A stretch of 64,000 nt of DNA from a virus: the IMG/VR virus record IMGVR_UViG_3300033141_003979, positions 32,001-96,000 of that record; one strand, given 5' to 3'. Positions 46,641 through 52,855 of this stretch are shown here, in pieces; positions within the stretch are counted from its first letter, which is position 1, and each line of letters opens with the position of its first letter. Below the pieces are notes generated by a model that did not search any database, was not told where the DNA came from, and saw only the letters and a program-made list of their open reading frames with translations. The position numbers were made by a program, and so were the translations under genes.

Positions 46641-46882
46641 AAAAATCAGACAAAAATAATCTCGTCTGTGCAAAATGCAGGGAAAGGATTAATTATGCTC
46701 TTTATCTTGAATATCCTAATAAATTGTCTGCTATCCCTCCACAAAAATGCAAAACCAAAGGATGCAAAAATCCTAACCGTGTTAATGATTTATGTTTGAG
46801 ATGCGCTATTATCAACTGGAAATTAACACATCCAAAAGAAAGAATATGGATAAAAAGAGGAATCTACAATGTTTTCCGCTGA
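46610..46882 (+). CDS. Cys-rich small protein
   Basis: SPCFEC...CAKC...CKTKGC...LCLRC. Confidence 0.55.
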   Translation: MQSPCFECELKKSDKNNLVCAKCRERINYALYLEYPNKLSAIPPQKCKTKGCKNPNRVNDLCLRCAIINWKLTHPKERIWIKRGIYNVFR

Positions 46883-47765
46883 ATCATTCTGTGAAGACTA
46901 TCAAATCCCTTGGTTCCCTCCAGGCACTAAAAATGTAGGCCGTGGGTATATAGGAATATGCTGCCCCTTCTGTGATGATACAAGCTCACATGGTGGATTC
47001 AATATCTCTAAGTCCTTTTACAATTGCCATCGATGCGGAGGACATTGGATATTAAAAATAATTGCGGCCTTAACAAAAACCAACATCCATAATGCAAAAA
47101 AAATCTTTGAAAAATATTCATCAGACGAATCGATTGCCGAAAAATTCAAACCCAATAAATATGTTTCAGAAGTTACTTTTCCTCCAGATACAGGTCCACT
47201 AAATGAAAAGGCAAAACAATATCTCATTAATCGAAACTTTGATCCAAACAAACTAGTCTCTGAATGGGGGCTCCTATCAACCGGTCACGCCGGAGAATAC
47301 AAATTCTCTATCCTAGCTCCTATCTACCTACATGGACTTCTCATATCATACCAATGCAGGGATATTACGGGTAAAAATCCCACTCCATACAAAGGGTGCT
47401 CGATTGATGAATCTGTCTACAATCATAAGCATTCACTATACGGAATTGATAAGGCAATGCCACAAAAGAAATGTGTAGTTGTTGAAGGAATCACTGATAC
47501 CTGGAGACTTGGGCCGGGAGCGGTAAGCACATTCTCAATGAATTTTACCATACCACAAATCAGATTATTAGTTCAATCATTTGATTACTCCTTCATTCTA
47601 TATGATCCAGAACCTCAAGCACAAGCACAAGCAGAAAAACTTTTTCATTACATAACCGGATGTGGCAAAGAAGCAGAAATTCTTAACCTACCAGACTGGA
47701 TAAAAGACCCAGGCGACTTATCAGATAACTCGGCTAAAGAAATTATGAAGGAATTAGGACTATGA
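46869..47765 (+). CDS. DNA primase (Zn-binding plus Toprim)
   Basis: CPFCDD..SH...YNCHRCG; VVVEGITD, ILYDPE, KDPGDL. Confidence 0.85.
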   Translation: MFSAESFCEDYQIPWFPPGTKNVGRGYIGICCPFCDDTSSHGGFNISKSFYNCHRCGGHWILKIIAALTKTNIHNAKKIFEKYSSDESIAEKFKPNKYVSEVTFPPDTGPLNEKAKQYLINRNFDPNKLVSEWGLLSTGHAGEYKFSILAPIYLHGLLISYQCRDITGKNPTPYKGCSIDESVYNHKHSLYGIDKAMPQKKCVVVEGITDTWRLGPGAVSTFSMNFTIPQIRLLVQSFDYSFILYDPEPQAQAQAEKLFHYITGCGKEAEILNLPDWIKDPGDLSDNSAKEIMKELGL

Positions 47766-47989
47766 AAGTAAAATATGTTGTAATAAATTATCACGGCGAT
47801 GACACCATGATTATCTTTCCTGGATATATTCAACATGCCACTATGGCAAAAATAGGATGTGTTATAATATCTGCCGGTTTTGTCAATATGAAAACAAAAG
47901 CCTGCTATGGAGAATCTGTAAGCTTAAAGGTAAAATCAGATCCAGAGCTTGATAACATTTTATTAGAAGAATTTTTTAATCAGGAATAA
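47762..47989 (+). CDS. Small conserved phage protein
   Basis: KYVV...IIFP..IQH...ISAGFV...CYGESVSLKVKS. Confidence 0.65.
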   Translation: MKVKYVVINYHGDDTMIIFPGYIQHATMAKIGCVIISAGFVNMKTKACYGESVSLKVKSDPELDNILLEEFFNQE

Positions 47990-47996
47990 AAAAAGC

Positions 47997-48025
47997 TTGA
48001 TTTTTATAAAAAGATATTTTATAAT
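47997..48025 (+). promoter_or_regulatory. Sigma70-like promoter
   Basis: TTGATT-17-TATAAT. Confidence 0.7.
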
Positions 48026-48033
48026 ACATTTTA

Positions 48034-48151
48034 GTAGAAATTCTTGGCGGGATTTCTACCTCCAAATTGGCCAGCTGTGATAGCGCACACAGTTATGGGA
48101 GGGGCTATCGTCCCCTCCCGGCTTCTTTTCTTTCGACCTTACGATAGGAGG
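48034..48151 (+). ncRNA. Structured leader RNA with kissing loops
   Basis: Hairpin at 48034-59 and a three-way junction at 48070-122. Loops GATAGC and GCTATC are complementary; CTATCGT is also complementary to ACGATAG (48141-47). Confidence 0.6.
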
Positions 48152-48156
48152 TTGTC

Positions 48157-48213
48157 TTGAGCAAAATAAATCAATTTTTATTAAAATCAAAACAAGGAGA
48201 TAATTATGTCTAA
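48157..48213 (+). CDS. 18-aa uORF overlapping the next start
   Basis: GGAGG RBS, TTG start; its stop lies just inside the gene starting at 48206. Confidence 0.4.
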   Translation: MSKINQFLLKSKQGDNYV

Positions 48214-48946
48214 TACCGAATACAGATACGGCTGCCAAGTAATTTGTAACGAAAACGATATCTATCCTGCCATGAAAGACCTTGTTGAAAACAAGGGAAT
48301 GTCTGTAAATGCTGCCGCTAAGTTCGTTCACAAGGACAGCAGTGGTGAGGTAACTAAGGGAAGGGCAGAACAAGTATATCTAAGACGAACTCCTTCTATG
48401 CACATAGAACCTGATAAACCTTTGAAAAAACAGACAAAAGAAAACACAAAATTACAGTTAAGCGATATAAGGAAAGAAATCAAAGCAGGAAATGTGTCTG
48501 ATGACGATACGAAAAAGTTAGTAGATACTATTGCAGATGAAGTGTCAAAAGAAACAGTTCACCCAAGAATTGGGTCAAGGCTAAATACCGCTATAAAAAA
48601 GTATCATACAAAAAGAAGATTGACTCCAAAAACAGATGAAAAAAGTAAAATCGAAATGCTAAACAAGAAATTGGGGGAATGCTCTACCGAGCTTAAATTA
48701 TTGGTGGATGGTCAAATAAAAACGGCCTCCGGTGACCAGAAATATTTAGATGCCATAAAAGGCCACGCCCCTATGATCATATGGAGTTTTCATGATCTTG
48801 GGATAGACATACAAAAGGTATGCAGGTTGATAAATGGCAGAAAGGAGATTTCAAATGATGGTACAACCCAAGTTCAACCTCACGACATTATCGACATTAT
48901 CCCCAAAACCATTATCTCTACGACAATTAATCAAAAGGAAAATTGA
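48206..48946 (+). CDS. Hypothetical protein, possible N-terminal HTH
   Basis: AAGGAG RBS; GMSVNAAAKFV...AEQVYLR. Confidence 0.65.
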   Translation: MSNTEYRYGCQVICNENDIYPAMKDLVENKGMSVNAAAKFVHKDSSGEVTKGRAEQVYLRRTPSMHIEPDKPLKKQTKENTKLQLSDIRKEIKAGNVSDDDTKKLVDTIADEVSKETVHPRIGSRLNTAIKKYHTKRRLTPKTDEKSKIEMLNKKLGECSTELKLLVDGQIKTASGDQKYLDAIKGHAPMIIWSFHDLGIDIQKVCRLINGRKEISNDGTTQVQPHDIIDIIPKTIISTTINQKEN

Positions 48947-49574
48947 TTATATAATAGAGACAGAAGTTCGCGTATCCCCATTTATAACTTGGATTAGCAA
49001 GGGGCAAATTCTTTGGGGAAACGGAATGCACTGGAAAAATGCAAAAGACAAATGGCTTAAAGAAGGAATAACCAAACATGCAGGAATAACAAGACCAACA
49101 AACGATGAGCTTAAATATCAAATCGGAGAATATGGATATTGTATGCCATGGCCTCCCCCGACATTTCCACCTATGTTAGGCCAAGTAATGCGTCCTGATT
49201 TTGTTAACCAATGGATTGACGGAAAACAATATACAGATCTTCGTTTTTTTTGGGGGTTAGGGTATGTCAATGAACAAGGCAAGCTAATTCCTGAATATGG
49301 AAATGGAGTAGCTGGATATTTCATGTTTATGGCAGATTCGCCTTTCCGTGAATTCCAACAACAATGGTTAGATAAACAGCCAAAATGGAAGAGGATACAA
49401 TGGGCTAGATGTAATGATACTTACATTTCTGCAGTTGACTATCAAATAAAAGCTAGCCGCAGAAAAATGATAGTAAGCCAACGACTTCTTGGAGTTCAAG
49501 AATATAAAGAGCTTGATGCCGCTAAAAATTTAGAATTAGAAGATACTCCATGGAGAAAAGAAAGTAAAGAATAG
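48834..49574 (+). CDS. Hypothetical protein (start uncertain)
   Basis: 246-aa ORF overlapping the previous gene. Confidence 0.6.
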   Translation: MAERRFQMMVQPKFNLTTLSTLSPKPLSLRQLIKRKIDYIIETEVRVSPFITWISKGQILWGNGMHWKNAKDKWLKEGITKHAGITRPTNDELKYQIGEYGYCMPWPPPTFPPMLGQVMRPDFVNQWIDGKQYTDLRFFWGLGYVNEQGKLIPEYGNGVAGYFMFMADSPFREFQQQWLDKQPKWKRIQWARCNDTYISAVDYQIKASRRKMIVSQRLLGVQEYKELDAAKNLELEDTPWRKESKE

Positions 49575-49634: not shown

Positions 49635-50909
49635 TTGACTAAAAATAATAAAGAAGAACAAAAAAAAGGAATCAAAGGCGTTTTTATTCCTGGCGAAGTT
49701 GCTTTTAATAAAACCCTCACAAAAACAGATATGTTTATTTGGTGGCAGATCGATTCACTTGACTGCACAGAAAAGCATTGTTTTGCAAGCAATGAATTCA
49801 TTTCTGATCAACTTGACTTAAACCCCCAGACAGTTTCAAATTCCATATCTAAACTAAAAGATCTTGGATATTTCAAGCAGGTAAGTTTCAATGGCCGCAA
49901 GAGAGTTTTAGCAAGAGATGATAGTTACCTTGAAAAATACAGGCATCTCGTTGATAAATATAACAGTGATAATAAAAACAGACTAAATCGATCCTTATAT
50001 GCAGACTATAATGACTCTTATAAGCAGACTAAGTCAACTCTTATAGGAGATATAAATAAGAATAGTAATAATAGTTTAGAAATTAATTCTAAAGAATTAA
50101 TAAATGATTCTGACGAATCACAAAAAATCTTTCCTGACAAAAATCCTATCAAACCTTCATACTCATCCAAATATGAAATATTCTCCTTGAGATTAATTCA
50201 ATTCTGGAATTCATTTCCTCATACCTCTATTCATAAAATTATTACTCCTCCAACAAAAACCTATCAATCCTTAATTAAAAATCTCTGTTCCTTGCAAACA
50301 GGAACCTTCCATAAGAACGGGAAACAATTTGATCCTGAATGGATCAAAAAGGACAAAATCCCTGAGAAATGGTTTTCTCTTGCTTGGACATATCAAGAGT
50401 TACGTGATGGAATTCAAGAAGCATCTAAATATAGTATGGAAGGATATTGGCCTTATAAAAAAAGAGAATTTTTCAAATCCTTAGCAAATCTCATATATGA
50501 TGCACACAGTCGAAAGAGTTGGTTGTTGGCCGCTATAAAAAACCCACCTAAGCTTCTCAAAGAATCTTCAAATGAACAATGGCAAAATCCTTTTCCGGAA
50601 ACAACTAAGATCTTTTTGGATGCAGGAATTTGGCCAAATGGATATGAAGTAGATTGTAAGATGCTTGCCAGAGGCATTGCCTCCTTGAAGATCTTCTCTG
50701 ATAATCTAGTCCCAGATTCCTACAATAAAATCAATCATTGGTTTGGTACCTTATATAAGCTTTCCACTGAATATATTACTTGGTTACAAGATCAAGACTG
50801 GTTGACCGATATCAAGGAAAATGTCATCGGGACAGAAAACGGAGTGTTTAAAAAATTCATTGAAGATCAGGAAAGGGAAATTGGGGTGAAGATAAGGGTG
50901 CAAGAATGA
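49635..50909 (+). CDS. Winged-HTH replication initiator-like protein
   Basis: IDSLD....CFASNEFISDQLDLNPQTVSNSISKLKDLGY (HTH_36-like); upstream of DnaB. Confidence 0.7.
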   Translation: MTKNNKEEQKKGIKGVFIPGEVAFNKTLTKTDMFIWWQIDSLDCTEKHCFASNEFISDQLDLNPQTVSNSISKLKDLGYFKQVSFNGRKRVLARDDSYLEKYRHLVDKYNSDNKNRLNRSLYADYNDSYKQTKSTLIGDINKNSNNSLEINSKELINDSDESQKIFPDKNPIKPSYSSKYEIFSLRLIQFWNSFPHTSIHKIITPPTKTYQSLIKNLCSLQTGTFHKNGKQFDPEWIKKDKIPEKWFSLAWTYQELRDGIQEASKYSMEGYWPYKKREFFKSLANLIYDAHSRKSWLLAAIKNPPKLLKESSNEQWQNPFPETTKIFLDAGIWPNGYEVDCKMLARGIASLKIFSDNLVPDSYNKINHWFGTLYKLSTEYITWLQDQDWLTDIKENVIGTENGVFKKFIEDQEREIGVKIRVQE

Positions 50910-51337: not shown

Positions 51338-52855
51338 ATGTTACAAAGATCTAAGCCCCCAGATTCGCGCATAGAACGCCAGATTTGCACCGGGCTTATA
51401 GTATCGGAGCAATTTATCAGAGAGATTAAACCAATCCTTCAACCAAATTCCCTTCAGCTTCCATTCACTCAGATAGTAGCAAACTGGTGTCTCGAATACT
51501 TTGATCAGTTTCAAACAGCTCCTGGCAGAAACATCCAAGACATATTCATCGAACACCGAAAAAGTAGTCTTGATCCTGATACAGCAGAATTGATTGAGGA
51601 TTTCTTGACTGGAATTTCTGATGAATATGAACGACAAGATGTATTCAATATTGGTTATATTCTAAAGAAAGCAGAAGATCATTTAAGGAATGTTTCTCTG
51701 CAAAACCTTTCCAAGGAGATTGCAAAAGCAGCTAGCGGAGGTAGGATTGAGGAAGGGGAAGCATTAGTAAAAGGTTATGAACGCATAGCAAGGCCACAAG
51801 CCAGAGGGGTAGACCCTATCAATGATTCTTCTGTCATTGTCAATGCCTTCACAGAAGATTCCGGAGACAAGTTATTTTCCCTGCCCGGAGCAGTAGGGAA
51901 AATGATGGGGCCGATGGAAAGAGGATGGTTATTCTCATTTGTTGCACCTGCAAAGGGAGGGAAAACTTGGTGGTTAATGCTAACTGCTTTGAAGGCATTG
52001 TTTTCTGGATATAATGTAATTTTTGTCAGTATGGAAATGTCAGAAAAGGCCATGACCAGGAGAATTCATCACTACATAAATGGTTTACCGACAAGGCGGT
52101 GGGCGGGGGAAATGTTGATCCCTGTCTTTGATTGTGAATGGAATCAGAAAGATACCTGTAAGAAATCAGTACGAAAGAATAAAATCAAATTATTATCTGA
52201 TGAAGGAAACCAGATTTCAGATTTTGATGACGCTTTAAAAGATTATACCCCTTGTACAGAATGCATGGGGACAAAGAAGTTTGCCTGTGAAAGTTGGTTT
52301 AAGAAAGTTACCAAAAAAGAACTGACAATCGAGCAAGCACTTAGAAAAAAACAGGCAATAAAGAGATCTGCCCTGGTCCGTGGTAGCCGGTTTCATCTTG
52401 TGGAATTCCCTTCAGGCACTTTAACTATGTCAGAATTGAAAGCATATTTGTATAATCGGGAACAATATCGTGGAGAGATCTATGATGTTATCTGCACAGA
52501 TTATGCAGATAAAATGAAGGCAGAATCCAGCTGGGAATATCGCCATGGGATAAATGAGATTTGGGAAGGACATAAAGGATTAGCACAGGAGAAAAACGCC
52601 CTAGTTGCCACTGCCAGCCAATCTAATACTGCCAGGTCAGGGAAAGACATTAAGCAAGGAGATTGGGCCGAGGATATTAGGAAATTGAACCTGATTGATG
52701 CTGGAATGGCACTCAACATGTCACCAGAAGAAAAGAAAAGAGGAGTTATGCGAGCAGGGCTCATGGCACAGAGACATGAATTTTTCGATGTTTTAGGAAT
52801 TGTTCATGTTTTACATCAGTTGAAGATAGGTCGTCCGTATTTGCAAAGTTATTGA
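51338..52855 (+). CDS. dnaB: DnaB-like replicative helicase with Cys-rich insertion
   Basis: APAKGGKTWWL (Walker A), VSMEMS, ICTDYADKM, TASQSN, AEDIRK. Confidence 0.85.
   Translation: MLQRSKPPDSRIERQICTGLIVSEQFIREIKPILQPNSLQLPFTQIVANWCLEYFDQFQTAPGRNIQDIFIEHRKSSLDPDTAELIEDFLTGISDEYERQDVFNIGYILKKAEDHLRNVSLQNLSKEIAKAASGGRIEEGEALVKGYERIARPQARGVDPINDSSVIVNAFTEDSGDKLFSLPGAVGKMMGPMERGWLFSFVAPAKGGKTWWLMLTALKALFSGYNVIFVSMEMSEKAMTRRIHHYINGLPTRRWAGEMLIPVFDCEWNQKDTCKKSVRKNKIKLLSDEGNQISDFDDALKDYTPCTECMGTKKFACESWFKKVTKKELTIEQALRKKQAIKRSALVRGSRFHLVEFPSGTLTMSELKAYLYNREQYRGEIYDVICTDYADKMKAESSWEYRHGINEIWEGHKGLAQEKNALVATASQSNTARSGKDIKQGDWAEDIRKLNLIDAGMALNMSPEEKKRGVMRAGLMAQRHEFFDVLGIVHVLHQLKIGRPYLQSY

Follow-up and report, generated by a model that had tools for sequence, protein, structure and literature searches.

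A covarying loop-loop contact at the masked Shine-Dalgarno sequence of a phage replication initiator operon: a candidate translational lock

The window analysed here is a stretch of 64,000 nucleotides, bases 32001-96000 of the virus record IMGVR_UViG_3300033141_003979, which is 109,770 bp long, carries direct terminal repeats and has a G+C content of 39.6%. Within the window, a 216-nt gap that separates two gene blocks is filled by the leader RNA region described in this work (Table 1). On the one side lies a block with a helicase, several small genes, a DnaG-type primase and a 75-aa gene, and on the other side begins an operon leading to a replication initiator and a DnaB-like helicase. A preliminary description, made from the sequence alone, had already placed the element ahead of coupled genes leading into a replication operon, and the annotation agrees with it. 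The first long gene of the operon, gene 48206, belongs to no known family: Pfam, PHROG and protein-atlas searches gave no lead. The protein family to which it belongs (P0002-P0008) is modular, with a conserved centre (DKPLKKQTK ...) and C-terminal part and two unrelated N-terminal segments. Gene 48206 has a Shine-Dalgarno (SD) sequence of its own, AAGGAG at 48195-200. The ORF that follows overlaps gene 48206 by 113 nt, so its true start is probably later than the one listed. Among GenBank phages we find no DNA match to this phage and no tblastn match to gene 48206, and the helicase reaches only ~24% identity with its best match there. Judging from these comparisons, no cultured phage is close to this one.

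Table 1. Features of the leader and the flanking genes (positions are those of the window)
Feature	Position	Strand	Remarks
Upstream gene block			helicase, several small genes
DnaG-type primase	46869-47765		upstream block
75-aa gene	ends at 47989		upstream block
Sigma-70-like promoter	47997..48025	+	TTGATT (47997-48002)-17-TATAAT (48020-25); 10/12 match, best of region
5' hairpin	48034-44/48049-59	+	11 bp including 2 G-U; loop UGGC within UUGGCG (48044-49)
Three-way junction	48069..48123	+	P1 48069-72/48120-23
P2 of junction	48073-79/48088-94	+	loop 1 AUAGCGCA at 48080-87
P3 of junction	48097-104/48112-19	+	loop 2 CUAUCGU at 48105-11
U-tract UUCUUUUCUUU	48123..48133	+	directly 3' of P1/P3
SD-masking hairpin	48134..48154	+	stem 48134-40/48148-54; -6.8 kcal/mol
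18-codon leader ORF	48157..48213	+	TTG start 5 nt after GGAGG; TAA 48211-13 overlaps ATG 48206
Gene 48206	48206..48946	+	first long gene of operon; 246 aa, no known family
Second gene	48834-49574		as ORF; without known function
Replication initiator	49635-50909	+	HTH_36 domain
Small gene			between initiator and DnaB-like helicase
DnaB-like helicase	51338-52855	+

We refer to this leader as W and to the leaders of related uncultured phages by L numbers. W opens with a sigma-70-like promoter, recovered as the preliminary description had proposed it, from which transcription probably starts near 48032-48033. Folding likewise confirms the 11-bp hairpin and the three-way junction of that description, each where it had been placed; the leader has an MFE of -40.4 kcal/mol (z = -3.5 versus shuffles) and its MFE and centroid structures are the same. 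P3, followed by the tract UUCUUUUCUUU, scores terminator-like in W, a point absent from the earlier account. The leader is also spanned by a 38-codon ORF (48044-48160) that starts with TTG without an SD and ends in a TGA (48158-60) overlapping the TTG of the 18-codon ORF (TTGA); it is probably meaningless. (U)UGGCC or UUGGCG is frequent in a hairpin loop upstream of P3, as in W (48044-48049, 48067-48072), L014, L060, L061, L103 and L109, and these words occur at 4.1 per kb in 13 leaders versus 1.35 per kb in the loci. One of the references of PMC10724649 names the hexamer present in W, UUGGCG, in its title as the loop motif of Inc RNA. We found no conserved partner for this loop, which is perhaps a further recognition loop, perhaps mere coincidence.

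The preliminary description had reported that loop 2 is perfectly complementary to a heptamer at the ribosome binding site. The match is indeed exact: loop 2 and ACGAUAG (48141-47) are reverse complements, and the latter overlaps the first G of GGAGG (48147-51). What had been missed is that ACGAUAG constitutes the entire 7-nt loop of a hairpin that sequesters the SD, the 3' arm of which holds GAGG. The contact with loop 2 is therefore of the loop-loop, or kissing, type, between two loops of 7 nt. On the plus strand of the genome ACGATAG occurs just twice, the other copy having no adjoining SD, and a search of the genome revealed no second SD-adjacent target for loop 2.

A match in one genome proves little, as 7-mers that precede GAGG and have their complement at most 90 nt upstream number 8 in this genome, against 5.5 expected from shuffles; the evidence must come from relatives. 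The other genomic coincidences (14543, 95942, 103343; also L021-L030) lie inside coding sequence without hairpin context and were set aside. That such coincidences are about as common as in shuffles, and that the leader has three GAUAG-like words (48079, 48105 on the other strand, 48143), is what would be expected of an ordinary promoter and terminator with chance complementarity, or of 7-mers that a protein binds in the DNA, for example as operator or iteron half-sites. This explanation is addressed by the comparison of relatives.

Relatives were obtained by way of a neighbouring gene. As single protein queries, gene 48206 and the initiator found no viral relatives; an alignment search with the initiator returned only contigs already in our set, and searches of genome contigs gave no match. 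In viral contigs, the exact P3 pattern had no match and the P1-P2 pattern had just three, all in contigs already in the set. The neighbouring primase has many metagenomic homologues, and two primase alignments (A5, A10) led to ~95 IMG/VR loci. Downstream of primase homologues in these loci we find 12 independent leaders: W, L010-L015, L041, L055, L060, L061 and L103, with L041 counted once, as L042 is identical to it. Distant homologues of gene 48206 (L002-L006) lack the leader.

The leaders share a common layout, in which a TTGATT-17-TAnnnT promoter is followed by at least one hairpin, a last hairpin and, 20-35 nt on, a hairpin of the form (A)CCUU-[loop]-GAGG(U) and the start codon. The promoter stands at the equivalent position in W, L012, L013, L014 and L015, and in L010 and L011 it reads TTGATT-17-TATAAA. 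At the place of the 5' hairpin most relatives have a hairpin, the sequence of which is not conserved. The three-way junction is found also in L010-L013 and L041, with stems of other sequence; RNAalifold retains P3, and 5/8 of its pairs are changed on both sides. In all 12 leaders a hairpin loop lies 20 to 35 nt upstream of its complement, which is 6-7 nt long (5 bp in L010) and ends at the first G of the SD (Table 2). Pairing is kept through compensatory changes in 11/12 leaders, which hold 11 different and fully matched loop/target pairs. L109 is a weaker and differently built thirteenth case.

Table 2. Loop and target sequences of the 12 independent leaders
Leader	Loop	Target
W	CUAUCGU	ACGAUAG
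L011	CCUAUA	UAUAGG
L012	CUGCUA	UAGCAG
L013	CCUGUUU	AAACAGG
L014	CUAUGAC	GUCAUAG
L015	CCGUGAA	UUCACGG
L041	CCUUGUC	GACAAGG
L055	CUGCUAU	AUAGCAG
L060	CCUGUUA	UAACAGG
L061	CCGUUAA	UUAACGG
L103	CCUAUUU	AAAUAGG
L010	UUGCA (5 bp)	UGCAA

Given that MAFFT and RNAalifold alignments of the leaders place loops and targets out of register, covariation was counted from explicit tables, anchored at the invariant first pair between the C of the loop and the first G of the SD. In this register 75/77 cells are Watson-Crick pairs, and the helix is free of internal mismatches. The first pair is C-G in 11/11 leaders, and pairs 2-7 each occur as 2-4 pair types. When loops and targets were re-paired at random, not one of 200,000 trials reached 75/77; non-cognate pairs match at a mean of 2.7-3.1 of 7 positions, with a maximum of 4 contiguous. 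The loop and its target are the most variable part of an otherwise conserved scaffold. The collection of homologues that had been proposed as a check on the preliminary description bears out its central complementarity, and on this comparative evidence we regard it as settled that the pairing of loop 2 with its target is a selected RNA contact. Covariation already contradicts chance complementarity: 11 different, exactly compensated pairs stand at the equivalent site in relatives, and both partners occupy hairpin loops of the transcribed strand, with a conserved promoter on one side and an SD on the other. The spacing varies from 20 to 35 nt, and a conserved DNA site for a protein would not change all its letters. 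We consider an explanation by coincidence or by protein sites hardly credible.

The same comparison does not extend to the other contact of the preliminary description, which had paired loop 1 with loop 2 and proposed a switch between two mutually exclusive states. In W the 6-bp match between GAUAGC (48079-84) and GCUAUC (48104-09) exists as described, yet it uses the closing base of each stem, and only AUAG/CUAU lie inside the loops. The match has 6 bp in W only and is 2 bp in L010-L013; in the five relatives with P2 the competing pairing amounts to just 2 bp. We therefore rejected kissing of loops 1 and 2 as a conserved state; the comparison does not support a conserved two-state switch, and the competing state would at best be private to W.

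The second feature conserved with the contact is masking of the SD. Across the leaders, the target flanks (A)CCUU and GAGG(U) form a stem of 4-7 bp. The SD of W has a predicted unpaired probability of 0.03; the median is 0.10 for 13 regulated SDs versus 0.66 for 73 SDs of long ORFs from the same loci (Mann-Whitney p 1.4e-5). The kissing helix covers one or two guanines of the SD and the CCUU anti-SD covers what remains of it. At least one SD guanine is always inside the helix, which fits occlusion of the SD and not its exposure. Moreover, the target is the loop and not the anti-SD arm of the hairpin, so that pairing cannot free the SD and could only stack on the masking stem and stabilise it. 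The high pairing of the SD, the inclusion of its guanines in the helix and the position of the target in the loop together lead us to read the leader as a translational lock.

An effect of opposite sign has to be weighed against this, since in a known group of plasmids a similar geometry activates. In the repZ/repA leaders of IncI1 (ColIb-P9), IncB and IncL/M plasmids, as here, an upstream loop pairs beside the SD in an initiator operon (PMC8053102), and coupling of a short leader ORF to rep is described for IncI1, IncB and R1 (tap-repA) (PMC8053102; references in PMC10724649). Without the pseudoknot, RepZ of such plasmids is not translated (PMC8053102). By analogy, pairing of the upstream loop 5' of the SD might help the ribosome to start, for example by holding the region in a favourable shape, and loss of pairing would then lower expression; that the hairpin loop pairing beside the rep SD of IncI1 and IncB is needed for translation (PMC8053102) would on this analogy count against a lock. 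The geometry here is that of the repZ/repA pseudoknot, with an upstream loop beside the SD of an initiator operon and sometimes a short leader ORF. However, guanines of the SD take part in the pairing, the conserved anti-SD CCUU binds what is left of the SD, and the target is a loop, so that pairing does not free the SD; a strong GGAGG should in any case need no enhancer. In the plasmids the activating pairing is blocked by a counter-transcript, whereas the anatomy of the present leader points to masking, and the two share no sequence relation. The loop pairing beside an initiator-operon SD is found here; as to a counter-transcript, a consensus scan for an antisense promoter in six relatives revealed none that is conserved. 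W alone has a minus-strand promoter-like site, TTGATT-16-TATTTT at 48190-48163, which would yield an RNA antisense to the SD hairpin and P3; not being conserved, it was rejected as the origin of a countertranscript. We consider activation by the contact improbable.

We favour, with a probability of roughly 55%, the reading that the leader, at least in cis, locks translation of the first cistron in the initiator operon. The host-type promoter would start an RNA that folds into the 5' hairpin and the three-way junction, and the 7-nt loop of P3 would pair base for base with the 7-nt loop of the small downstream hairpin. The loop-loop helix would take the first G of GGAGG and the stem CCUU/GAGG would take the rest; with both formed, the ribosome binding site of the first cistron would be fully paired and initiation of translation held down. 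In W the lock would be passed through the 18-codon ORF to gene 48206 by translational coupling, probably also by polarity, and a lock on this first cistron would reach the genes that lead to the initiator. Owing to the U-tract that follows P3 in W, many transcripts would probably end as an RNA of ~95 nt with a free loop 2. A lock that is always formed in cis requires an unlocking signal, a consideration that speaks against the cis reading.

Coupling through the 18-codon ORF is suggested by the overlap of its stop with the start of gene 48206, as the preliminary description had pointed out. The strength of this coupling is made uncertain by the good SD, AAGGAG, that gene 48206 has of its own, and this weighs against the lock as formulated for W. 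A short ORF overlapping the next gene is present in W (18 codons), L015 (36), L014 (22) and perhaps L055 (41). The ORF had been given as part of the device; it exists in W, but it is not a defining part of the family, since in 7/12 leaders (L010-L013, L041, L060, L103) a long gene stands directly behind the masked SD. This gene is the initiator in L010 and L041, in L014 an initiator homologue lies behind the 22-codon ORF, and in W, L011 and L013 the initiator comes one or two genes later. In four lineages the initiator apparently starts with TTG (49635 in the window; L011:6852; L014:6162; L041:5767), the N-termini being similar. The TTG of L014 lacks an SD and falls within the 22-codon ORF behind the masked SD, an arrangement that implies unusual coupling or an indel in the contig.

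The loop could act on its own message or on those of other genome copies. It is possible, although we regard it as rather unlikely, that the leader is a C4-like regulator working mainly in trans. An RNA of ~95 nt would arise from it by termination at the U-tract or by processing, and loop 2 of this small RNA would kiss the SD hairpin of full-length messages from any copy of the genome. The outcome would be a dosage-dependent negative feedback on initiator synthesis and, with each lineage having its own 7-nt code, lineage-specific interference between co-infecting relatives. The terminator-like P3 and U-tract of W, which come right after a strong promoter, would suit such a role, as would the U-tracts of L010, L011, L014 and L041. 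By the count used here (>=6 U in 8 nt), a U-tract is present in 5/12 leaders; it is moderate in three and absent (<=3 U in 8 nt) in L012, L013, L060 and L061. Since several leaders have none, termination is probably not the core function of the leader family; the tract is weak or missing in 4 to 7 of the 12, so that a small RNA made by termination would not be a product shared by the family. In addition, any message with the target has loop 2 in cis as well, where its local concentration is high. Two points favour action in cis: a target is always accompanied by the loop on its own RNA, and the terminator is not conserved.

The distribution of the codes also bears on this question. Each lineage has a private loop/target pair with little cross-match, and that loop and target are the most variable part of the leader is expected of a specificity determinant acting in trans and less so of a structural contact in cis. 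The private codes are, as far as sequences can tell, compatible with a C4-like small RNA that sets specificity in trans. For such a role there is a precedent in c4 of P1 and P7, which PMC12197685, citing Citron and Schuster 1990, presents as an antisense RNA that acts at the ribosome binding site region of ant mRNA and is the basis of heteroimmunity. Two leaders from one sample, L010 (L010:4636-4812) and L011 (L011:6080-6256), share ~97% identity between the promoter and the 5' arm of P3 and then have different loops and targets, as would be fitting for a change of specificity in trans. Yet they diverge from the P3 loop onward, L011 thereafter resembling L012. The difference is a mosaic joint exactly at the specificity loop, and looks like recombination and not like point changes.

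Among known systems, the leader comes nearest in layout to c4-icd-ant of P1/P7 and to the rep leader pseudoknots and leader-peptide coupling of the IncI1, IncB and R1 plasmids. The likeness to C4 of P1/P7 (immI, c4-icd-ant) deserves comment, as the preliminary description had invoked it. The comparison is apt as to layout, with an upstream loop on the same strand aimed at the ribosome binding site of a short coupled ORF. In both, the regulatory hairpin loop is located upstream of its target, on the same strand and transcript, and the target is at the ribosome binding site of the first cistron. In P1 immI this first cistron is a short ORF coupled to the next gene, and C4 presents two loop segments (a', b') that have two matching target segments. 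Citron and Schuster reportedly studied the c4 antisense RNA of P1/P7 in 1990. The leader has one covarying loop instead of two, loop 1 being without a conserved partner; its target is itself a hairpin loop on an SD-masking stem; and it heads the initiator operon of a large phage with direct terminal repeats, whereas C4 belongs to an antirepressor operon. Matched changes of loop and target, as here, are a property of C4 relatives according to PMC12197685.

Covariance models place the leader outside the known families, as had been surmised when its sequence was not recognised. Compared with C4 and the related P4 CI RNA by the RF01695 model and by layout, the leader does not match the model: at E values up to 10, neither C4 (RF01695) nor int-alpA (RF02996) has a match in 47800-48400. 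At gathering score no C4 match was found in the 64-kb window, and neither C4 nor int-alpA in the 12 related loci; at E up to 5, eight related loci gave no match to C4 or int-alpA. The Rfam check suggested at the outset found no family for the window, for the leader at permissive thresholds or for the related loci, and literature searches found no description of this leader element. By the standard of these searches, the leader is an uncatalogued control element.

Recognition by short loops is known from other RNAs. In ColE1 RNA I/RNA II and in S. aureus RNAIII, as here, recognition is by fully complementary hairpin loops, 6-7 nt in length, and hairpin loops of RNAIII arrest translation at the SDs of their targets by loop-loop contacts (PMC2837412). 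In those systems the partners are two separate RNAs, whereas here both loops lie 20-35 nt apart in one leader. The lambdoid PR'-6S RNA-tR' region, like other promoter-proximal terminators, resembles W in having a strong promoter and a terminator-like hairpin within ~100 nt ahead of an operon; in the present family, however, the U-tract is not conserved, and the conserved feature is the loop-SD pairing past the termination point.

Three paralogous units lie elsewhere in the genome, outside the window (L007:74-225, L008:63-215 and L009:61-215; genome 11173-, 97762- and 106680-). Each consists of a TTGA(T/C)T-17 promoter, a leader of ~36 nt, a three-way junction, a U-tract, a GGGGA or GGAGA SD and a small endonuclease-like gene. 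The junction has a P1 of 9 bp, a P2 with a GNRA loop and a P3, and the loop of P3 covaries with a word of the 5' leader (GUUGCU/AGCAAC, GUUACU/AGUAAC, GUUAUC/GAUAAC) that sits 3 nt before a UCCAAAA stretch pairing with the U-tract and the SD. They have no Rfam match. The principle, a loop contact beside an SD-masking helix, is the same as in the initiator leader, in another arrangement; homology between the two was rejected, there being no alignable similarity beyond the promoter and the U-tract.

Control of initiator synthesis by short RNA loop contacts is known for plasmids and from P1-type immunity, and is not known to have been reported for large uncultured phages such as this one. The contact reported here is backed by unusually clean natural covariation, with 11 different codes of 6-7 nt, and adds a candidate family of phage cis-regulatory RNAs that marks the start of the replication operon in genomes without cultured relatives. 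Being ~120 nt long, modular and self-contained, the element makes its mechanism accessible to reporters in which loops are swapped or changed in a compensatory way. Should the loops turn out to be orthogonal in trans, nature would have supplied a set of translational locks that can be programmed, and interference between related phages might have its basis here. Tentatively, although we think it rather unlikely, the private 7-nt sequence of each lineage may be regarded as an address, by which the terminated leader, present in abundance, would serve in trans as an RNA lock specific to the replicon. Such a lock would limit initiator synthesis as genome copies rise, and would shut down the replication genes of a co-infecting phage only where the code is shared. 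If true, large lytic-type phages would have an RNA-based system of incompatibility or exclusion that evolves through matched switches of loop and target.
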